A stretch of DNA of 64,000 nt, taken from contig CAKOPG010000005.1 in NCBI GenBank assembly GCA_934098745.1, positions 4,839 through 68,838 of the forward strand, written 5' to 3'. Each line of letters begins with the position of its first letter. Within the stretch, counting starts at the first letter, position 1. This document shows positions 5,114 to 40,781 of this stretch, one piece after another. Under the pieces are notes generated by a model, which was not told where the DNA came from, did no database searches, and saw only the letters and a program-made list of their open reading frames with translations. The DNA is from an uncultured Bacilli bacterium (GTDB lineage: Bacteria; Bacillota_I; Bacilli_A; RF39; UBA660). The position numbers and the translations under genes are program-made.

Positions 5114-6766
5114 TTATATACATTTAGAATTATCCCTATTATAGTTACCTCCAAGATAATTAACATATTCTTGTATCTTAATCTCCGAGATATCTATCCA
5201 TTTCTTATTAGTAACATAAAAATCAAAATCACTATTACTTGTCATATATATTGGTTCATAAATAATATTTTTAACATTAAAAAGTTCATATGGAATACGA
5301 ATAACCGCATAATAATTAGTATTTGAATATATCTTCCCATCTAATTTATTATATATATTAGCCGTATCATAATCCTTAGAATATACCCTTATATAATTAT
5401 CATTAATACCATAATAACTTCTAAATTTATTATATAAAGATTTCTCAATAACTAAGTCATCTATTGATACCTGATTACCTACTAATATTTCAAAACCATG
5501 TTCCTGCGTATTTTCAGATCCATTATGATGATTACTATAAACTATTTTACTAACACTTCCATAGTATCCAATCGTTAATCCCCTTCTATCTAAATTATCT
5601 ATTGATTTATTACCTAACATCTCTCCATAAGTATCATCATATCTTACCATATATACTTTATACCCCATAGATTCATAACGACACTTTTCATATTTAGATA
5701 TCATTAAATTCAAATCTTTCTCTGCCAATAAACCATTAGATGTTCCAATATCACTTCCCCCATGACCCGGATCTATTACAAAATCATACTCATACTTAAA
5801 ATCTTCTACTTTAACACTTACATAATCATTATCATACATCAAAGTTACTAATTTATTTTCGATCTTTCCTCTAACTAATCTATTAAATACATTTAATTTA
5901 TTTAATAATCTTTCTTCTTGATTACTAACTATATAAATATCATATACGCCATTCTTTACCGTTGTAAAATCTATATTACCACTATAATAATTAGTATTAT
6001 CTAAAGTCATATTAAATAAATATACCTGTTTACTATCTCTATTCTTTAACTTAATCTTATAATTATTAGCATTATCACTAACATATCCCTCTAAATATAT
6101 TCCCTTACTATTAAATACATTTCTAGTAACAGTATTTGAATACTCCTTAACATTATAAGAATTAACATTAATAATACCACTTGTCTTATCGCCTAATGTA
6201 ATTGTAGGATTAACTACTTTAACTATTCTCTTTACTGAAGAAGAATTACCACTACTATCACTAACTGTATAAGTAATAGTATATTCCCCCTCATGTGAAG
6301 TATCAACATTACCATCTACTTTTACCCGATCAGTAATATCTTTATCATAATTATCTATTGCCCTATATCCATATTCATAGTAATTACCATTGACAAGTAT
6401 CTTAACCTCATTACCATCTACAAGGTCTATCTCTGGTTTGATCTTATCAATAACTATAACTTTTCTATATATATATTCACTATTTCCATTAATATTAACC
6501 AAATATTTTACCTGATACTCCCCTAATTTAGACATATCTACATTACTATTATCAATCTCTACCTGATCAGTAATATCTTTTCCCTGATATAAAACATTAA
6601 CCCCATATTCTTCATATTCAGTATTGACATCTACATATAAAGGACTAGGACCAATAAGCTTAAATTTAGCATTCGTATCATCTTCATACGAAAAAGAATA
6701 AGTCACACTAATTAAACTTACTACCATTAAAAGAATAAAAGTTGTTACATAGTAATATTTTCTCAT
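5114..6766 (-). CDS. N-acetylmuramoyl-L-alanine amidase (Amidase_3) with N-terminal Ig-like repeats
   Basis: N-terminal signal/anchor. Repeated Ig-like segments (GEYQVKYLV.., GEYTITYTVSDSSGN). C-terminal FVIDPGHGGSDIGTSNGLLAEKDLNL is the Amidase_3 core. Start is taken at MRKYYY; the track gives 6778. Confidence 0.7.
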   Translation of the reverse strand: MRKYYYVTTFILLMVVSLISVTYSFSYEDDTNAKFKLIGPSPLYVDVNTEYEEYGVNVLYQGKDITDQVEIDNSNVDMSKLGEYQVKYLVNINGNSEYIYRKVIVIDKIKPEIDLVDGNEVKILVNGNYYEYGYRAIDNYDKDITDRVKVDGNVDTSHEGEYTITYTVSDSSGNSSSVKRIVKVVNPTITLGDKTSGIINVNSYNVKEYSNTVTRNVFNSKGIYLEGYVSDNANNYKIKLKNRDSKQVYLFNMTLDNTNYYSGNIDFTTVKNGVYDIYIVSNQEERLLNKLNVFNRLVRGKIENKLVTLMYDNDYVSVKVEDFKYEYDFVIDPGHGGSDIGTSNGLLAEKDLNLMISKYEKCRYESMGYKVYMVRYDDTYGEMLGNKSIDNLDRRGLTIGYYGSVSKIVYSNHHNGSENTQEHGFEILVGNQVSIDDLVIEKSLYNKFRSYYGINDNYIRVYSKDYDTANIYNKLDGKIYSNTNYYAVIRIPYELFNVKNIIYEPIYMTSNSDFDFYVTNKKWIDISEIKIQEYVNYLGGNYNRDNSKCI

Positions 6767-7715: not shown

Positions 7716-9611
7716 TCAATATACTACCTTCTTATACGTATCATAATAAATTCCATTTATAATTATATATAAAGCATATTCCCCATGTCCTAAATTAATA
7801 TTTATATTCTTTTCAACATCCTTTAACTCATCCTTGTAATTAATAATATAACTATTACTATTTTTACCTACCAACAATATATCTACCTTATCATACGTAT
7901 CAAACTTATAATCAGTATCTATAACATACTTTGTATAACTAATATTATTTTCATATTTCTTAGCACTATCTAATTTATCACTTATCTTTCTAGTATTAAT
8001 CTTTTCTACCTTAGATAAATCCATCGTATTATAGAAATTACTATCTACATAACTAAAATTACTCATCTTATCCATATATAAACCATGTTTAAATATTCTA
8101 TACTTTCCATCTTCTATCGTAGCTTCTAATAATATTTCATCCTTATCATTAACTTCAAATATTTTAGCATAAGTATTATCTGTATTTTTTTCACTCTCAC
8201 TAAGTGTAGCATCTGATCTATTCCTGTAGTCATCCTTTAAAACCCAGCCAAAATTCATTAATTTATTACCATCATAGATATTAAATGAACCGTATTGATG
8301 AGCAAAATATTTTTTATCACCATCAAAAGACCATACCAAACTAGCTTTTTTAGAATCTATTCTATATAATTCCATACTACTATAACTATCCTTATAAGAT
8401 ATAACATCATCAATTCCACCTACTTCAAAGCCATTATATCTATCATATCCATTATTTATAAATCCTATTAATCCATCTGATGTAACCATTACCGAATGAA
8501 TACCTAAAGGATATCGTCCACTTTCTAAAGTTACCATATATTCATCAAATTTATCACTATATATTCCCGGAGGAGCAAAAATATAATTTAATTTTTTAGT
8601 ATTATAATTAATACTAACTATTGAATTTAATCCTCTTAATGAAACTATTAATTCTCCTGTTTTCTCATTATAAGAAAAAGCATTTCTAATTATTTTGTAA
8701 CCAAGTCTATTATCATCAAATTCTGAATCTATATCTTTAAATATCTTATATAAATCTACATAACTAATAAACTTTCCAGTATTATCTATTTCATATATCA
8801 TTGCATGTTTATAAAATATGGGTTCTTCTCCTCCACATAACATATAATTACCATTTGAAAGAACTTGAAACTCAAAATCATAACCATTTCTTAAAACATA
8901 ATAATTATATATCTTACCTAAATAATCCATTTCTACAAAACCAATTTTTCTATCATTGACACTTCCTTCAGGAATACCTACTAAAAAATGTCCATTATCA
9001 AGCCATTCAAAATCCATTACATATTTTTCAGTTAAATACCATTTTAAATTGCCATTAATATCATATGCTGAAGCACTAGTTCCTACAGGACTAGTCATAA
9101 AATATAAATCATTATAATTACTAAAAACAGCTTTATCTATAACAAGATCATTAACATCTATAGCCTTATCTATCTCTATATCAATCTTCTTAACGTTACC
9201 TAAATCATCTGATAAAGTAATATAATTAACTCTTCCAGAATACATTCCATATACTGGAATTATATGCTTTGTATCTTCTTCCATTATAAAATTATATTCA
9301 TCATTAATACTTACCTTAATACTTGTATTATTAACACTACTAAATATTATTAAAGCTGTCATTGGTGATATTTTATAAGGATTTACTATAACTTTAGGAT
9401 TATCAATCGTATATTCTAAATCATTACTATATTTCTCTATTTCTTTATTAATTTTTTCCTGTTCTACTAAAACATTCCCTATAGCATAATTAACATCCAT
9501 CTCTTTATCGAAATACTTTTTACCATAATCCTTAAAAAATATCAACCATATAAGTATAATAAACAATATAATAATTAAAACTAAATATACTAATTTTTTT
9601 ATTTTCTTCAT
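7716..9611 (-). CDS. Arylsulfotransferase (ASST)-like beta-propeller protein, membrane anchored
   Basis: N-terminal TM, then ..DNPKVIVNPYKISPMTALIIFSS.., which resembles the ASST N-terminal domain. It is a paralog of the next gene. Start is taken at MKKIKK, preceded by AGGTGA; the track gives 9632. Confidence 0.5.
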   Translation of the reverse strand: MKKIKKLVYLVLIIILFIILIWLIFFKDYGKKYFDKEMDVNYAIGNVLVEQEKINKEIEKYSNDLEYTIDNPKVIVNPYKISPMTALIIFSSVNNTSIKVSINDEYNFIMEEDTKHIIPVYGMYSGRVNYITLSDDLGNVKKIDIEIDKAIDVNDLVIDKAVFSNYNDLYFMTSPVGTSASAYDINGNLKWYLTEKYVMDFEWLDNGHFLVGIPEGSVNDRKIGFVEMDYLGKIYNYYVLRNGYDFEFQVLSNGNYMLCGGEEPIFYKHAMIYEIDNTGKFISYVDLYKIFKDIDSEFDDNRLGYKIIRNAFSYNEKTGELIVSLRGLNSIVSINYNTKKLNYIFAPPGIYSDKFDEYMVTLESGRYPLGIHSVMVTSDGLIGFINNGYDRYNGFEVGGIDDVISYKDSYSSMELYRIDSKKASLVWSFDGDKKYFAHQYGSFNIYDGNKLMNFGWVLKDDYRNRSDATLSESEKNTDNTYAKIFEVNDKDEILLEATIEDGKYRIFKHGLYMDKMSNFSYVDSNFYNTMDLSKVEKINTRKISDKLDSAKKYENNISYTKYVIDTDYKFDTYDKVDILLVGKNSNSYIINYKDELKDVEKNININLGHGEYALYIIINGIYYDTYKKVVY

Positions 9612-9618
9612 CGCTTCA

Positions 9619-11433
9619 TCACCTAATATCAAATACTACTCCCGTATCATAATACTTACCATTAATTATAATATATATTGCATATTCTCCCTTTATTTTT
9701 GATATAAAATCATTCAAATATAAATATCTATATCCATCATTTTTCATGCTTATTTTATAAAAATTATAATCTTTATTTACAAATAACACCTGATAATCCT
9801 CTGAAGTATCAATCTCAATTCCTAACTCTTTAGATACCTTAATCATTCCCCTATCTATTAAAGCTCCCTTTAATTTATTATAAATATTATCTTTATAAAG
9901 AGTTAAATCTTTCTTTTCTCTCTCCACAGCTTCTTCTTCATTATCTGCTTCAAAATAATAAACCTTCTTATAATTATTAGCATCTATTTTTTTAAAATCA
10001 TTATTAATATTATAATTACTTGTTACATCATTATAAAAATTATATCTTCCTGATTCATATATTAAAATATTTTTATATTCAGTAACCAACTCCATCGTTA
10101 TATTATTATCCTTATCAAGTTCAATTACTTTAGAATACTTCCCTCTATCATCATCAACAATACTACCAAAATTAATATGTTTAATATCCTTATAAACATA
10201 AAAATTACCATACCAACCAGACGCTACATCACCAGTATATCGATATACTTCATATAAATTATCTCCTTTTACTTCATATATAACTGCTGAAGATTTATTT
10301 AAAGAATTAAATGAATTATTATCATTAAAATAACAATTACTATTATCAAAAACATATAAATAATCCCCATCCATATATGGTGAATGTTGTCCTATAAAAT
10401 AAGTTACATCATTAGATAAATTCAACTTATATTCATTAAATTTATCAGAAAAAACTGAATTATTAGTAATCATCCATATAATCTTTTCATTAACTAAATC
10501 ATATTTAATAATAGTATCTAACCCTCTAATAGATATAAGTAACGTTTTATTAACTTCATCATATTGAAAATGATTCATATAAACTATCTCATTAGTAATA
10601 TCTATATCTTTATCTACATTCATTAAAACATCAATTAAATTAAATACTGTTTCTACCTTACCTGTTTCATAATCTATTTCTGATATTGAAAAAGAAGAGT
10701 CAATAGCCATTATATTATTATTACTTAATTTAACTATTTGATGATTATTACTAGTTAAATAAACATAATACATTCTTGTAACTCTTCCCATAAAATCAGT
10801 CTCTAAAAGCCTATTATATCTATCTAACAAATATATTTTTTTATCATCTGTAATAATAAATTCATAATTACCATTATCATTATACCAATTAATATTACCT
10901 TCTCCATCTAAAGAAAACTTCCCCATTGGAGAATTTATAAATAAATTATCACTAATATCTCTAGTAGAATTATATTTATACATAATACTACTATCTATTT
11001 TATTAGTCTTAATATTAATTTTCTTCTCCTCGTTTTTATTATTTATAATAACTATCTCATTATTATATTCTTCTTTAAGTCCATATACCGGTATTATATG
11101 TTCATGTCCACTTTCCATAGTAGTTATAAAATGACCATTTATATACAACTTAATTTCTGTATCTTCCTCTGTATAAAATATTATCATTGCTGCTAACTTA
11201 GAATTGTTATATGGATCAACTACAACCTTAGGATTATCAAAAGTGATATTCTTATCATTGACATAACTTTCTAATTCAGAATTAACAATTAATTGATTAT
11301 CTTCATAATTAACACTATAATTATAAACTTTTTTATCTTTAAATAAAAACTCTTTATTATTTATATTAATTACTATACCACCAATTAATAAAATCACCAA
11401 CAAAATAATCATTATCCATTTTTTACTATTCAT
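9619..11433 (-). CDS. Arylsulfotransferase (ASST)-like protein, paralog of 7716-9611
   Basis: Same architecture and collinear motifs (DNPKVVVDPYNNSKLAAMIIFYT; C-terminal ..GEYAIYIIINGKYYDT..). Start is taken at MNSKKW, preceded by GGAGG; the track gives 11463. Confidence 0.5.
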   Translation of the reverse strand: MNSKKWIMIILLVILLIGGIVININNKEFLFKDKKVYNYSVNYEDNQLIVNSELESYVNDKNITFDNPKVVVDPYNNSKLAAMIIFYTEEDTEIKLYINGHFITTMESGHEHIIPVYGLKEEYNNEIVIINNKNEEKKINIKTNKIDSSIMYKYNSTRDISDNLFINSPMGKFSLDGEGNINWYNDNGNYEFIITDDKKIYLLDRYNRLLETDFMGRVTRMYYVYLTSNNHQIVKLSNNNIMAIDSSFSISEIDYETGKVETVFNLIDVLMNVDKDIDITNEIVYMNHFQYDEVNKTLLISIRGLDTIIKYDLVNEKIIWMITNNSVFSDKFNEYKLNLSNDVTYFIGQHSPYMDGDYLYVFDNSNCYFNDNNSFNSLNKSSAVIYEVKGDNLYEVYRYTGDVASGWYGNFYVYKDIKHINFGSIVDDDRGKYSKVIELDKDNNITMELVTEYKNILIYESGRYNFYNDVTSNYNINNDFKKIDANNYKKVYYFEADNEEEAVEREKKDLTLYKDNIYNKLKGALIDRGMIKVSKELGIEIDTSEDYQVLFVNKDYNFYKISMKNDGYRYLYLNDFISKIKGEYAIYIIINGKYYDTGVVFDIR

Positions 11434-11482
11434 AAATACCTCCAAGAAAGAAAAACCGTACATATCAGTACGATTATCACAT

Positions 11483-12555: not shown

Positions 12556-12604
12556 TCCAATTAAATAATAAACTATCTTATAAGCCACATTCTGTACCGT
12601 AATT

Positions 12605-12922
12605 GGTGACAAACATTTATCTATGAGTTACCTCATCCATTTTATAGATTCTTATTCTCCTAAAATAGTTCCCCTACCATAATTTGGGTTTCTCACTTGT
12701 GGGGTTTACCGCGTTTCACCCTATACATTTCTATATAGATTCGTCTCTGTGGCACTTTATATCTACCTAGTCATAGATATACTCCTTAGACTATAGTAAA
12801 TGCCGTCAAGTTATTAACTTGCCATCGGTTATTTTTTCCCTTTGCACAAACATTACTATCATCACAGATAGTGTGAGTGTGGACTTTCCTCTAAGTATTT
12901 CTACCCAGCGTTTGTCCAGATA
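12605..12922 (-). ncRNA. rnpB: RNase P RNA, bacterial type B (compact)
   Basis: The minus strand reads ..GAGGAAAGTCCACAC.., ..AAAGTGCCACAGAGACGAATC.., ..GGTGAAACGCGGTAAACCCCACAAGTGAGAAACCCAAATTATGGTAGGGGAAC... A terminal P1 pairing GACAAAC (about 12916-12910) / GTTTGTC (12614-12608) closes the structure. It sits next to gpsB, as in B. subtilis. Ends are accurate to about 5 nt. Confidence 0.85.
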
Positions 12923-12924
12923 AT

Positions 12925-21016: not shown

Positions 21017-21034
21017 AATTACCTACTTTCTATA

Positions 21035-21058
21035 TCCCTAAGTATAATACTTAAGGAC
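21035..21058. repeat. Inverted repeat, gene-proximal (switch A)
   Basis: TCCCTAAGTATAATACTTAAGGAC is the exact reverse complement of 21206-21229, and it is itself a near-palindrome. Confidence 0.9.
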
Positions 21059-21147
21059 CCTTTTGTATGTATGTAAATACCTTATATCATAAGGCTTTAA
21101 GACATATTTTAAGAAATATAAAAGTAGATAAAAAGTCAAATTTTGTA

Positions 21148-21176
21148 TTTACATAAAACCAGTGTCATGCTATAAT
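21148..21176 (+). promoter_or_regulatory. Sigma-A-type promoter inside switch A
   Basis: TTTACA-17 nt-TGC-TATAAT (extended -10) on the plus strand. Confidence 0.7.
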
Positions 21177-21205
21177 TTATATAGGGTAGATAAAGATAAA
21201 GGTGT

Positions 21206-21229
21206 GTCCTTAAGTATTATACTTAGGGA
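21206..21229. repeat. Inverted repeat, gene-distal (switch A)
   Basis: GTCCTTAAGTATTATACTTAGGGA is the reverse complement of 21035-21058. Confidence 0.9.
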
Positions 21230-21263
21230 CATTTTTATATTATTTAACTACTTAAAAATAATC

Positions 21264-27855: not shown

Positions 27856-29637
27856 TTATTCTGAAATATTTATAGATACTGCACGAAAGCCATCCAAATT
27901 ACGTCCAGAACCATAACTATTATTATAGTGAAATCCGCCGCCACTAATACCAGAACTATAACATCCACCACGACTAAGCCATGGTCCAGATGCTGAAACA
28001 AAAGTCGTATAATCACCATACCAGTTGTTTACTTCAGCTATTCCATGTCCATAGCAATATCCTCCATTACATGCTGTTAATTTATTAATTGTTGTGCCAC
28101 TACTTGCTTTATACATGTCATAATATTTACTTTCCGGAAAAGTTACTCCGACAGTTTTTGATGTTCCATCAGTTCCAAGTGCTCCCTTAAATCCAGAATT
28201 ATATGTCGTGGAAGTACCACTCCACAATTTAGAAGATGAATTGGCAAACACTCCCATTACTATTTCCCAAGTTCCTCCCGACATATCAAAAATACCGCTT
28301 ATATTCCCTGTTGTACTTTGAGGATACGCTGAAGTTGAACCATAAATTATTCCACATGTTGTACTTTGACTTTCATTTTCCGTACTGGCCCCACAACCAG
28401 TCAATGTTTTATTATTACTCCAATAATTATTTATTCTTATTTCATTATTTATTCCATATTTAGAATGTGATAAATAGATTACTGCGCCCCATTCACTATT
28501 TTTCATCATATGACTATCACTACTACTATCTAGTCCATATATTTTACTTCCAGAAAAAGTTGTTGTACCGTCGTTAAGTGTTCCTCCGGCAAATTTTAGC
28601 GATGTTTGAAACTGATCTGACGTATTTTGACTAGTTAGTGATGCATTATTTGGTTTTATCGTCGGTGTTGTAGCATCACCGGTTGTTTCAAATTTACCTA
28701 CCCATATTCCATCTAATTCTTTATTTTCAAATGTGAAAGCTGGATGAGTTAAATACTCTTCTACCTGAGTTCCCGTAGATTTTTCTGTATCTTTATCTTC
28801 AAAAACAATCTCTATCTCTTGTTCCTTGCCTTTAGCACTAGTACCTACAGTCCATATTTTATACTTATATCTCGGTATCCAGACATAATATGCTAAAATA
28901 TTATCTTCTGGTATTGTTACCCCACTGGTATTTAAATAACTACTTCTTGATGTTTCTGTTACCAGTACCGCATTAGCCCATTGTTGTCTATTATAATTAT
29001 ACCAAGAACTATCATTACTAGATACAGTCGTAACAGTGCCATCATCAGCAATAGTCACCGGTATCATCCCATCTAATAAATCAACCACAACCGCTTGACC
29101 ATTATAAATGCTGGCATTAAGTTCGGCTTTAAAAGTCTTTCCCTGTATATTAGAACTAGTCGCATCATTTCCATCTAACCAAGTATAAACTTTATAATTA
29201 TACTCTTTTTCAGCCGGTATAATTTCTTCCAATATAATAAAATCATCTTCTATATTCGCACTAGCAAAATTACCTTCTTTATATTCGGTATAATTATTAC
29301 CACCATCAATACTTCTTAAAATCGTATATTTAAAAGCAGATACAATTAATTCATTATCTATTTGTTTAATATCATAATAAAGTTTTACTTCTCCATCACT
29401 TCTACCACTATTTTTAATATTTACATCTATTGCTGAAGTACTACTATAAGTCAATGTTGGTACTAAAGTTTCCTCCACTACATAAGGCTTTAAAGTAACT
29501 CTTATTCCGTCTATATCTCCCACCGTTAGTACTAAAGCTGTTTCCTTACTTTTCCATGTAAGCCATGCCAAAGTCCCCACAAAAGAAATGATTATTAATC
29601 CTAAAAGTATTAGTAAATAAAGTTTTTTCTTATTCAT
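27856..29637 (-). CDS. Secreted/surface protein, paralog B: TasA/CalY-type signal + N-module (type 2) + FGE/lectin-like head
   Basis: N-terminus ..IIISFVGTLAWLTW... From MIPVTIADDGTVTT to the C-terminus (GFRAVSI) it is collinear with paralog A. Confidence 0.75.
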   Translation of the reverse strand: MNKKKLYLLILLGLIIISFVGTLAWLTWKSKETALVLTVGDIDGIRVTLKPYVVEETLVPTLTYSSTSAIDVNIKNSGRSDGEVKLYYDIKQIDNELIVSAFKYTILRSIDGGNNYTEYKEGNFASANIEDDFIILEEIIPAEKEYNYKVYTWLDGNDATSSNIQGKTFKAELNASIYNGQAVVVDLLDGMIPVTIADDGTVTTVSSNDSSWYNYNRQQWANAVLVTETSRSSYLNTSGVTIPEDNILAYYVWIPRYKYKIWTVGTSAKGKEQEIEIVFEDKDTEKSTGTQVEEYLTHPAFTFENKELDGIWVGKFETTGDATTPTIKPNNASLTSQNTSDQFQTSLKFAGGTLNDGTTTFSGSKIYGLDSSSDSHMMKNSEWGAVIYLSHSKYGINNEIRINNYWSNNKTLTGCGASTENESQSTTCGIIYGSTSAYPQSTTGNISGIFDMSGGTWEIVMGVFANSSSKLWSGTSTTYNSGFKGALGTDGTSKTVGVTFPESKYYDMYKASSGTTINKLTACNGGYCYGHGIAEVNNWYGDYTTFVSASGPWLSRGGCYSSGISGGGFHYNNSYGSGRNLDGFRAVSINISE

Positions 29638-29707: not shown

Positions 29708-29736
29708 ATTATAGCATAACCATATTTCTTTGTAAA
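29708..29736 (-). promoter_or_regulatory. Fixed sigma-A-type promoter for paralog B (same promoter family as in the switches)
   Basis: The minus strand reads TTTACA-17 nt-TGC-TATAAT, followed by TTTAGATAG, similar to the switch promoters. Confidence 0.65.
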
Positions 29737-32736: not shown

Positions 32737-32828
32737 AACATCATCCTCCTAAAATAATTATATAACACTTTTTTTCATTTTACTAGTATTTTTATCTCTT
32801 TTTTGTAAATATTATTATTGGTGATAAA

Positions 32829-33053: not shown

Positions 33054-33087
33054 CTATTTTTTTTATTATTTATTCATATACTTAAAT

Positions 33088-33765
33088 ATGAAAAAAATTT
33101 ATATAATTATTATTATTTTATTATTATTAATTATCCTCTTATTATATCCTAAGAAAAATAATCTTAAAATTACTTATCAAGATAATTTTACCAAAATGAA
33201 TACCATTAATAAAACTAATAGAACTAAAATAAATATATATATTCCTATAACTAAATATCAAAAATTAAATCATGAAATAAAAAAGACTGTTGATAATTAT
33301 TTAGATGAATTTAATAAAGAATCTCTTGATTCTCCACCTACAATAGATACATATAATACTCTATATATCCTATATGATGAATATTATTATAAAGAATATA
33401 TCTCTATTGTTTTATATATTGAAAAATTTACTGGTGGAGCCCATCCTAATCATACTATTAAAACGATTATCTATAATAAAGAAACCAATAATTTTATAAC
33501 TATTGACAACCTTATTGAAGATAATCCTAATATTTTAAATAATCTATCTACTATTTCAAGAGAAACACTCTTAAATAATCCTAAATTTAAAGATAATCTA
33601 GTCAAAGATATGCTATATACTGGAACTAGTCCCAATAAAGAAAACTTTACCAATATAGCATACACTCCTAATGGTCTTAATGTTTACTTTGATTATTATC
33701 AAATAGCCCCTTATTATTATGGTTATAGTGAAATATTAATTCCCTATGATAAACTAAATTTATAA
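33088..33765 (+). CDS. DUF3298/DUF4163-type (RsiV/PdaC C-terminal-like) anchored protein
   Basis: N-terminal TM. ..KFTGGAHPNH.. and C-terminal ..YFDYYQIAPYYYGYSEILIPY... Confidence 0.55.
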   Translation: MKKIYIIIIILLLLIILLLYPKKNNLKITYQDNFTKMNTINKTNRTKINIYIPITKYQKLNHEIKKTVDNYLDEFNKESLDSPPTIDTYNTLYILYDEYYYKEYISIVLYIEKFTGGAHPNHTIKTIIYNKETNNFITIDNLIEDNPNILNNLSTISRETLLNNPKFKDNLVKDMLYTGTSPNKENFTNIAYTPNGLNVYFDYYQIAPYYYGYSEILIPYDKLNL

Positions 33766-38947: not shown

Positions 38948-40510
38948 TTAAGCAATTGTATATGGATTGCTCCTTGTACCAGTTCCCTCTAATTTAATAT
39001 TTTGTTTAAGATATACTACTGGCTGAACCCCATACACATTATCTACACGATAATCTGCCGGATAATTAGTACCAACACGACCATTGCTACCCACAAAAAA
39101 TACCGTATGTATATAACTTGAAAATGGAGAAATAGTAAATCGTGAGTTAGATGAATTAAATAACCATGAATTACTTGGTTTAGCTCCTTGATCCGTATAA
39201 CAAACATTCATATTATTATAACACGTATCATCAACACCATTTGCAAATGTATAGCTATAATCTGATGGATACATTAATCCGACATATCCATCCCAGTTTA
39301 ACTCTCTATTTGTTGGAACTGTAGTTCCTCTTTCTACAGTATACCAATCACTCGCTCCTTTGGTAGTATTATTCGTTCCTCCCAAATAATATGTTACTTC
39401 ATCTATTTGCGATAATGCCTCATTATTTAATGTCCATGTATTTTTTTTACAACTATATGCTGTTGCCCTAGCTGCAATACTTGCAGGCTTACACCCAATT
39501 TGATACATTATATACCCATTAGCACCTTTTATATAATTTCCATCTAAAGTATATCCCGTTTTTAGCTTATATGTTGTTGGGTTTAACATATACATTAATT
39601 GTGAATCTGTCCAATCATTTGAACCAGAATCACCCGTTGATGAACCAACCGCAAGAGTTTTATAATCAAAATACATACTACCAATAGATGCATCTTTTAT
39701 TATTTTTATTCTTCCATCAAATACTCCAATCATTCGCCATACTTCATTATTATATGTTATATAATTATTAGGCACATTTCCGATATATCTATAATCTGTT
39801 AAAGCCTCTGTTTGCTCTGTTGCTTCATGAGAAAATGTCCACATTTCACCTTTTTCAGTATCCGTTGCTTCAGTATACGTCAACGTACTCGGATTAGCTT
39901 TTTCTATAAGTTTCTGCGCATTTAATAACAACTTATCAGCACAACTTCCATTTAACGATAGACTAAATGTTTGGTTCATTGTCTCACTACTAGTTTCTTT
40001 AGCATCTAACCATATCCATAAATAATACGTATCCACAGTCGTAGATGTATAATCTTTTACATTTAATAAATTTATTTTATCTCCAACTGTTTTGCCCTTA
40101 AAATTACCAGATGAAATAACTCCTAAAGTATTACTAGTACTATTCGTTGTAAAAGCATACATAAAATTATCACTATTAGTTAAACCCGTTCCTATATCTT
40201 TTATATCTAACCATAAATCCAGATAAATAGTTTTACCACTCTTAGTAATTGTTGGGGTAACTTTTACTTCCCTTTTTATATAATTACCAGTTGTACTACT
40301 ACTTACTGTGGTAGGTATTAACGTTACATCATCTGGTGTTATATTACCTCCACCATCAGCCGCACATCTAAAATCACTTGTTACTGTAAATACGACATTA
40401 GTCTTCTCGCTTTCAGATGTTTGCCAAGATAAATAGGCAAAAGTACTACCTACAATTATAAGTATCAATGATAATACCACTAAAATAATAGTCATTCTTT
40501 TACTTTTCAT
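38948..40510 (-). CDS. Secreted/surface protein, paralog C: TasA/CalY-type signal + N-module (type 1) + a different C-terminal head
   Basis: MKSKRMTIILVVLSLILIIVGSTFAYLSW. Residues up to ..LSLNGSCADK are collinear with paralog A. The remainder (..WRMIGVFDG.., ..YGVQPVVYLK..) is unrelated to the A/B head. Start is taken at 40510, since GGAGGAAATT precedes that ATG; the track gives 40522. Confidence 0.75.
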   Translation of the reverse strand: MKSKRMTIILVVLSLILIIVGSTFAYLSWQTSESEKTNVVFTVTSDFRCAADGGGNITPDDVTLIPTTVSSSTTGNYIKREVKVTPTITKSGKTIYLDLWLDIKDIGTGLTNSDNFMYAFTTNSTSNTLGVISSGNFKGKTVGDKINLLNVKDYTSTTVDTYYLWIWLDAKETSSETMNQTFSLSLNGSCADKLLLNAQKLIEKANPSTLTYTEATDTEKGEMWTFSHEATEQTEALTDYRYIGNVPNNYITYNNEVWRMIGVFDGRIKIIKDASIGSMYFDYKTLAVGSSTGDSGSNDWTDSQLMYMLNPTTYKLKTGYTLDGNYIKGANGYIMYQIGCKPASIAARATAYSCKKNTWTLNNEALSQIDEVTYYLGGTNNTTKGASDWYTVERGTTVPTNRELNWDGYVGLMYPSDYSYTFANGVDDTCYNNMNVCYTDQGAKPSNSWLFNSSNSRFTISPFSSYIHTVFFVGSNGRVGTNYPADYRVDNVYGVQPVVYLKQNIKLEGTGTRSNPYTIA

Positions 40511-40526
40511 AATTTCCTCCATTATA

Positions 40527-40551
40527 TCCTTAAGTATAATACTTAAGGACC
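40527..40551. repeat. Inverted repeat, gene-proximal (switch B)
   Basis: TCCTTAAGTATAATACTTAAGGACC is the exact reverse complement of 40697-40721. Confidence 0.9.
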
Positions 40552-40579
40552 TACCTCTATCTTTATTTAACCTATATAA

Positions 40580-40609
40580 ATTATAGCATAAGTGTTTATT
40601 TTCTGTAAA
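40580..40609 (-). promoter_or_regulatory. Sigma-A-type promoter inside switch B, reading toward paralog C
   Basis: The minus strand reads TTTACA-18 nt-TGC-TATAAT. Confidence 0.7.
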
Positions 40610-40696
40610 TATAAAATTGAATTTTTAAAGGTTTTTGAAACATGTAAAATATCTCATAAGTCTTTATAATGTAAGGTATTAGGCTACATACAAAAG

Positions 40697-40721
40697 GGTC
40701 CTTAAGTATTATACTTAAGGA
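40697..40721. repeat. Inverted repeat, gene-distal (switch B)
   Basis: GGTCCTTAAGTATTATACTTAAGGA. The palindrome extends to 40723. Confidence 0.9.
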
Positions 40722-40781
40722 CCTTTTTTATATAAAAATATATTAAAGAAGTGTATTTAACACTCATCTATTAAAGTTATT

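Follow-up and report, generated by a model that had tools for sequence, protein, structure and literature searches.

The 520-aa gene at the center of this study (gene B) is preceded by a 195-bp cassette whose two ends are inverted copies of each other and whose interior holds a promoter directed at the gene. This raises the question of whether the promoter belongs to a segment that the cell can turn around and, if so, whether it still does. The initial annotation of the 64-kb stretch of DNA analyzed here (the window) had described the cassette, which we term switch B, as a second copy, in the ON orientation, of a cassette found upstream of a paralogous gene (switch A and gene A), and had suggested independent ON/OFF control of the two loci. 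Based on the comparisons detailed below, we propose that switch B is probably an invertible promoter (inverton) served by a recombinase encoded outside the window and that it is most likely controlled in trans, as one member of a multilocus set of such promoters. The coordinates of the relevant features are collected in Table 1.

Anatomy of the cassette and conservation of its arms

The arms of switch B are 25 nt long and 100% complementary (0/25 mismatches); the perfect inverted repeat, as first described, is exact, with 145 nt between its arms. It is far above chance expectation. A search of the window with the arm pattern, allowing up to three mismatches, returned seven overlapping matches against none in 100 shuffles, and these fall only at switch B and at 21035-21231. 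Likewise, perfect 20-nt inverted seeds less than 400 nt apart were observed 11 times against none in 30 dinucleotide shuffles.

Each arm is in itself a near-perfect palindrome (11-1-11 to 12-1-12) around a single center base, and the consensus over all loci and strains is GTCCTTAAGTAT-W-ATACTTAAGGAC. The two arms of B can also be read as a 26-nt direct repeat with one mismatch, which falls at the center base, and the polarity of an arm is set only by this base and those adjoining it. When read from the inside of the cassette to the outside, the center base is T in four of the four arms in the window and A in all the arms of a metagenome-assembled genome (MAG), CAZEVZ01, to which we return below; within each organism, this polarity is consistent among all arms. 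Further, the arms are strongly conserved: they show 0/25 mismatches in B and 1/27 in A, while the interior and flanks diverge by ~26%, and at that divergence the probability of at most one mismatch in 25 positions is 0.005. Single-nucleotide polymorphisms between strains adjoin the 23-nt arm cores and the promoter hexamers and never fall inside them.

A few further observations concern the arms and similar structures. In two assemblies (L005 and L006, positions 5955-5990), two substitutions adjoining the proximal arm let the palindrome grow to 29 nt and also create an in-frame ATG within the arm; one gene caller started a 534-aa protein (P0123) at the ATG inside the proximal arm. On the minus strand at 40708-40736, the TATAAT of the arm center and a TTTATA of the distal flank make up a predicted promoter (10/12) directed into the switch. 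Elsewhere in the window, a 33-nt imperfect inverted repeat (32753-32785 and 33079-33111; 76% complementary) brackets 293 nt between genes of the LemA and DUF3298 families; it is AT-rich and may be due to chance.

Table 1. Coordinates of switch B, its sister cassettes, and the associated genes (positions in the window unless a contig is named)
Feature	Position	Strand	Remarks
Switch B cassette, 195 bp	arms 40527-40551 and 40697-40721		145 nt between arms
Gene-proximal arm, switch B	40527-40551		TCCTTAAGTATAATACTTAAGGACC; putative recombinase site
Gene-distal arm, switch B	40697-40721		GGTCCTTAAGTATTATACTTAAGGA
Putative invertible interior, switch B, 145 nt	40552-40696		74% identity to reverse-complemented A interior
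Predicted sigma-70-type promoter, TTTACA-N18-TATAAT, TG extended -10	40580-40609	-	faces gene B (ON)
Terminator-like hairpin on distal arm	40692-40733		apparently bidirectional
Ribosome-binding site GGAGG	40516-40520	-	5 nt upstream of ATG 40510
Gene B, 520 aa, putatively regulated	38948-40510	-	N-terminal membrane/signal segment, beta-sandwich, paralog-specific C-terminal part
Switch A, sister cassette	21032-21232		arms 21032-21058 and 21206-21232
Predicted promoter, switch A	21148-21176	+	faces away from gene A (OFF)
Gene A, 600 aa	19214-21016	-	N-terminal domain as in B, different C-terminal domain
Gene C, 593 aa, third paralog	27856-29637	-	57% identity to gene A, nearly full length
Predicted fixed promoter of C, TTTACA-N17-TGCTATAAT (= TTTACA-N17-TGCTATAATTTAGATAG)	29708-29736	-	11/12 + TG
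Switch E	L048 2789-2981 (scaffold_508, sample ERZ28614532)		complete, OFF; upstream of 604-aa paralog
Broken copy	L047 1-35 (scaffold_734)		starts inside proximal arm, 35 nt upstream of 601-aa paralog

The promoter, the start of gene B, and two predicted RNA hairpins

The promoter that had been placed on the minus strand at 40609-40580 is indeed present. It is a consensus-level prediction, with 11 of the 12 consensus positions matched and a TG before the -10 element; its -35 element and TGCTATAATTTATATAGG are conserved in switches A and E as well as at the fixed promoter of the third paralog, C. The counterpart in switch A likewise scores 11/12 and has the TG. At this consensus level of evidence, the promoter of switch B would drive the adjacent gene in one orientation only. 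The start codon given for gene B, the ATG at 40510, is backed by the GGAGG motif, by the alignment of the paralogs, and by a public gene call for a 520-aa protein (P0001). A start at 40522, which results from mechanical delineation of the open reading frame, was set aside in favor of 40510, as its ATG overlaps the ribosome-binding site.

Both arms are also predicted to fold as RNA. In the predicted 5′ untranslated region (UTR) of the ON transcript, the proximal arm forms an 11-bp stem (-12.8 kcal/mol) situated 5 to 6 nt upstream of the ribosome-binding site, with no T-run after it. The hairpin of the distal arm is framed by A/T runs on both sides, with CAAAAG contributed by the interior and TTTTTT by the flank. 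The plus strand has a predicted fold of -21.6 kcal/mol (z = -6.9) and the minus strand one of -18.2 kcal/mol (z = -5.2); a terminator scan calls the hairpin on the minus strand. A minus-strand terminator at this position would stop read-through from uvrB. In the OFF copy at A, the outward-facing promoter runs into the distal-arm hairpin and then a T-run.

Inverted homology between the paralogous loci

Genes A and B are paralogs lying 19 kb apart. Their switch interiors had been judged, from an alignment made by hand, to be homologous as reverse complements, and pairwise alignment bears this out: the B interior shares 110/149 identities (four gap columns) with the reverse-complemented A interior, versus 98/167, with many gaps, when both are aligned in the same orientation. 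The gene-proximal flanks of A and B align in direct orientation (77/102). Over the whole upstream region, A flipped in silico is 74% identical to B, versus 61% for native A. The description of switch B as a second copy of the cassette, opposite in its orientation relative to the gene, thus holds, with the promoter pointing toward gene B at one locus and away from gene A at the other.

The position of the junctions can be read from the half-sites. When A, B, and a third complete copy, switch E, are oriented by their promoters, the interiors and inner half-sites are collinear, and it is the outer half-sites and the flanks that change places. The outer pair of half-sites, in A as in E, is of the C variant (TCCCTAAG) and the inner pair is of the T variant; hence, the inversion junctions lie inside the arms.

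The third paralog in the window, gene C, has a gene-facing promoter at the same distance from the gene as in the switches, and there it stands without arms. Because C carries the same promoter fixed toward the gene, the promoter appears to be native to the gene family and the orientation at B to be the ON state; the ON assignment in the initial annotation is strengthened by this comparison. A degenerate palindrome (GGGTTCTTAAAAGATAATTTTGAAGAC) occupies the position of the proximal arm in C; it may be what is left of a switch that decayed, or it may reflect the ancestral state. Farther upstream, C has an ordinary terminator hairpin.

Further copies and the distribution of the arm sequence

Switch E and a broken copy of the cassette come from a metagenome sample, ERZ28614532, in which another scaffold (L024/L040) is identical at gene B to the window; the switch-bearing scaffolds of this sample likely belong to the window's genome. 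Switch E shares 91% identity with A and 82% with B, and the 604-aa paralog that it precedes is located downstream of ftsZ.

Among ~185,000 GTDB species genomes, one carries the arm sequence as part of a switch, the MAG CAZEVZ01 (contigs L001, L003, and L004); the same scan also gave one single hairpin. This MAG has a full switch on one contig, next to a gene for a different membrane-anchored protein and with the promoter facing away, and two more of its contigs (L001 and L004) end inside the switch interior. The arms are the same 25 nt, while the interior is ~55 to 59% identical, which is near the AT-rich background, and is unrelated to that of B except for a promoter-like element. It can be argued that the arm is recognized by a protein, since the same 25 nt here surround an unrelated interior. 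The MAG is titled "uncultured Muribaculaceae"; its switch contigs are AT-rich and Firmicute-like, and the label or the binning looks wrong.

A scan of JGI metagenome contigs with the arm revealed no switch and three single hairpins in unrelated contexts, which we judged to be chance terminators, and a scan of viral contigs with the arm pattern gave no match. The homologs sampled from other species (L007 to L023 and L028 to L033) have no upstream switch; a difference in gene calls among L031 to L033 was considered as a possible inversion and ruled out, the DNA being identical. No known RNA family was found by Rfam over the switch region, and the arm sequence was encountered neither in the literature searched nor in the supplementary files of a gut inverton catalogue. 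The comparative support for the arm as a switch is thin.

Orientation across assemblies and evidence for activity

Switch B is ON in the window and in L005, L006, and L024/L040 (four to five assemblies), and P0123 likewise appears to imply the ON state, its called start codon being made by the ON junction. At switch A, each of the six contigs from other samples, including L034 to L037 and L039, shows the OFF state. Among the four to six assemblies covered, with contigs obtained via exact matches to the proteins of B, A, and the neighboring uvrB, ftsW, and DUF4190 genes, none has the opposite orientation at A or B; both orientations are seen only across paralogous loci, with B ON and A and E OFF. 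In addition, the open reading frames of at least 100 aa in the 64-kb window include no serine or tyrosine recombinase (Resolvase- or Phage_integrase-type domain). With B ON and A OFF in every assembly and no recombinase gene within the 64 kb, independent ON/OFF control is a suggestion that the assemblies do not support.

The paralog that is OFF offers a different line of evidence. Gene A is intact and has a pN/pS of ~0.25 (six nonsynonymous and seven synonymous differences; binomial p = 0.011), in a selection test based on 13 to 16 substitutions. As the gene is intact and under purifying selection, though OFF in all assemblies, it is presumably expressed at least sometimes. Only 18 nt separate the proximal arm from its ATG, so there is no space for another promoter there. 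The ends of some contigs are also of interest. One Logan contig (L038) ends exactly at the last base common to both orientations, which is the inner edge of the distal arm of A, and the end of L046 (3192) and the start of L047 (1) fall at the same arm position, 19 nt into a proximal arm, in the output of different assemblers. Such contig ends are no more than a hint of mixed orientation; they may also stem from low coverage, from the repeated cassette, from hairpin-related loss of coverage, or from strain variation. Taken together, the conservation of the arms, the purifying selection on gene A, and the contig ends are indirect evidence that would favor an active switch, and we think it fairly probable that the switch is still inverting.

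The putatively regulated proteins

The 520-aa and 600-aa proteins have an N-terminal region of ~205 aa in common (56% identity), which comprises a hydrophobic segment and a domain of ~170 aa; their C-terminal parts are unrelated. Neither protein matches a Pfam or NCBIfam family, and a sequence search of the PDB with the regulated protein gave no match. The AlphaFold model of the 520-aa protein is confident only for residues ~37 to 192 (pLDDT 76 to 94), which adopt a beta-sandwich; the C-terminal part has a pLDDT below 50, and the model is unusable there. Residues ~37 to 192 match the TasA fiber (8aur_A) and archaeal donor-strand pili (7ueg and 7pnb) with probabilities of 0.93 to 0.99, yet these matches are weak (E ~5e-4 to 2e-3; TM ~0.3). 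We take the motif GSTFAYLSW to resemble SipW-type signal peptides; no SipW gene is present in the window.

In full-length homologs of the 600-aa protein, the C-terminal region passes the Pfam threshold for FGE-sulfatase (PF03781), and DUF6273 forms the C-terminal end of one long homolog of the 520-aa protein. Both families are very large: at least 2,279 matches were obtained with the 520-aa sequence and at least 7,995 with the 600-aa sequence, nearly all of which stem from ENA metagenome assemblies, human-gut samples among them. It is reasonable to view the products of A and B as putative alternative surface heads.

Elsewhere in the window, at 7716-11463, two tandem arylsulfotransferase (ASST) paralogs adjoin an amidase with surface Ig-like domains. 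A class B RNase P RNA, the sole Rfam match, is found at 12576-12923 (267.6 bits) and, taken with an SSPI spore-protein gene call at the matching position of L005 and a GC content of 27%, points to a spore-forming Firmicute.

A proposed mechanism and its relationship to known switches

We propose that a site-specific recombinase from outside the window binds both 25-nt arms, each of which would be a complete dyad-symmetric site, and that strand exchange in their central TATWATA flips the 145-nt interior along with its single strong promoter. In the ON state, transcription from the promoter would cross the proximal arm and enter the 520-aa gene; in the OFF state, as at A, it would point away, and the transcript would meet the distal-arm hairpin followed by the T-run of the flank. 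The arms probably act as RNA hairpins as well, the distal one as a terminator upstream of the promoter that shields the gene from uvrB read-through and the proximal one as a stem-loop in the 5′ UTR of the ON mRNA. A single recombinase acting in trans on the cassettes in front of several paralogs could vary which proteins the cell displays. In this scheme, we infer that inversion continues, what kind of recombinase carries it out, and that the arms act as a terminator and in the UTR.

Several parallels are offered by the RecV switches of C. difficile (flgB, cwpV, cmrRST, and pdcB, among others). Like the cassette described here, these are short and flanked by inverted repeats, occur at several loci per genome in a low-GC Firmicute, and are placed just upstream of genes for surface or signaling proteins; the RecV recombinase is encoded elsewhere, and a similar trans logic is what we envisage for switch B. 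The cwpV and flgB switches act after initiation, via terminator formation and Rho, unlike the cassette studied here, in which the promoter lies inside the segment, as in the canonical design. A further difference from the RecV systems is that the 64-kb window holds no RecV-like gene, and inversion is here a presumption. The C. difficile flagellar switch is 154 bp long and has imperfect repeats (PMC7446863), whereas the repeats here are perfect and every arm is a full palindrome. More generally, trans-acting recombinases that work on scattered switches with common repeats have been described, namely, RecV in C. difficile and Mpi in Bacteroides (PMC5903667; PMC7446863). Indeed, Cdi2 and Cdi5 of C. 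difficile have identical repeats (PMC5903667), and in Bacteroides many loci with a common repeat motif are governed by one master recombinase, resulting in combinatorial surface variation (PMC5903667; PMC11892184). Invertons of gut Clostridia with new repeat motifs linked to tyrosine recombinases have already been catalogued (PMC11892184).

In its logic, switch B would also resemble fimS of E. coli (FimB/FimE) and the capsular polysaccharide invertons of Bacteroides (Mpi and Tsr), in which a promoter segment flips between gene-facing and gene-averse states. Unlike these, it has an unrelated repeat sequence, a different host lineage, and arms that double as terminator-like hairpins, and its targets are single genes for uncharacterized proteins with common N-terminal domains rather than fimbrial or capsule operons. 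The arm by itself is reminiscent of loxP and FRT in resembling a complete site, with two inverted half-sites and a central asymmetry that sets direction. A 9-7-9 reading of the arm agrees with the core-site geometry of tyrosine recombinases, and the odd length of its center is no more than a weak argument against a serine invertase, with its 2-bp crossover. Unlike in loxP and FRT, the asymmetry amounts to a single central base pair, and the 64-kb window has no Cre- or Flp-like enzyme. The design is that of a canonical invertible promoter; what is special is the combination of palindromic arms doubling as terminator-like hairpins and a set of invertible and fixed paralogs.

Alternative explanations

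A different reading of the same anatomy is that one or a few past events, either chance recombination or template switching between the 25-nt inverted repeats, turned the interior around and that the orientations are now fixed. The arms would then be paired palindromic operators of a dimeric regulator looping ~172 bp with the promoter inside, or simply terminator and UTR hairpins; gene B would be ON either constitutively or under the control of a regulator, and A and E, if expressed at all, would rely on a different promoter. Such a history is consistent with the invariant orientation of each locus in all assemblies examined and with a window devoid of recombinases, and the arms have both the dyad symmetry of operators and strong hairpins with T-runs. 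Further, the substitutions of L005 and L006 lengthen the palindrome, as fits selection on symmetry or on the stem, and ordinary hairpins occupy both corresponding positions in paralog C. However, a fixed inversion leaves unexplained the perfect inverted-repeat polarity at the asymmetric center base at three loci, the intact gene A, OFF yet under purifying selection with its 18 nt between arm and ATG, and the contigs of different assemblers that stop at the arms. Hairpin function alone would allow compensatory changes, whereas the arm sequence is the same across the loci and in another organism. On balance, we regard an old inversion that no longer moves as unlikely.

The cassette might instead be a MITE or Correia-like element with an outward promoter, inserted independently in either orientation. 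It is multicopy: this organism or sample has at least four loci, and MAG CAZEVZ01 has three, one of which is beside an unrelated gene. Its size of ~195 bp and its 25-nt terminal repeats are MITE-like, as known from Correia elements. Against insertion, the proximal arm is found in the same place, 14 to 18 nt from the start codon, at every locus, and the outer half-site and the flank with the ribosome-binding site are homologous between loci. In addition, the promoter recurs in paralog C, equally far from the gene and with no arms around it, which argues for a native rather than an imported promoter, and the scan of viral contigs came up empty. Given the constant position, the homologous flanks, and the absence of a target-site duplication flanking the arms of switch B, we rejected this very improbable origin.

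Implications

An invertible promoter addressed in trans hence remains the reading that we prefer. In its fullest form, which we put forward as a tentative possibility, it would be a multilocus master-recombinase system of a low-GC gut Firmicute, in which palindromic lox-like arms serve at once as recombination site, bidirectional terminator, and 5′-UTR hairpin. The system would choose which members of a very large family with a TasA-like N-terminal domain and variable (partly FGE/lectin-like) C-terminal parts are displayed, with one paralog hard-wired ON that would be a natural control. A stretch of 20 kb presents a natural experiment with an invertible ON, an invertible OFF, and a fixed-promoter paralog. 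The general picture of invertons, whose frequent occurrence in gut bacteria (Clostridia among them) is established, is unchanged. The arms suggest recombination sites that also insulate transcription, and such sites could serve in synthetic switches. If the switch is active, it would open a first functional route into a very large protein family, and phase-variable control would mark this family as being under selection by the host, phage, or the immune system.
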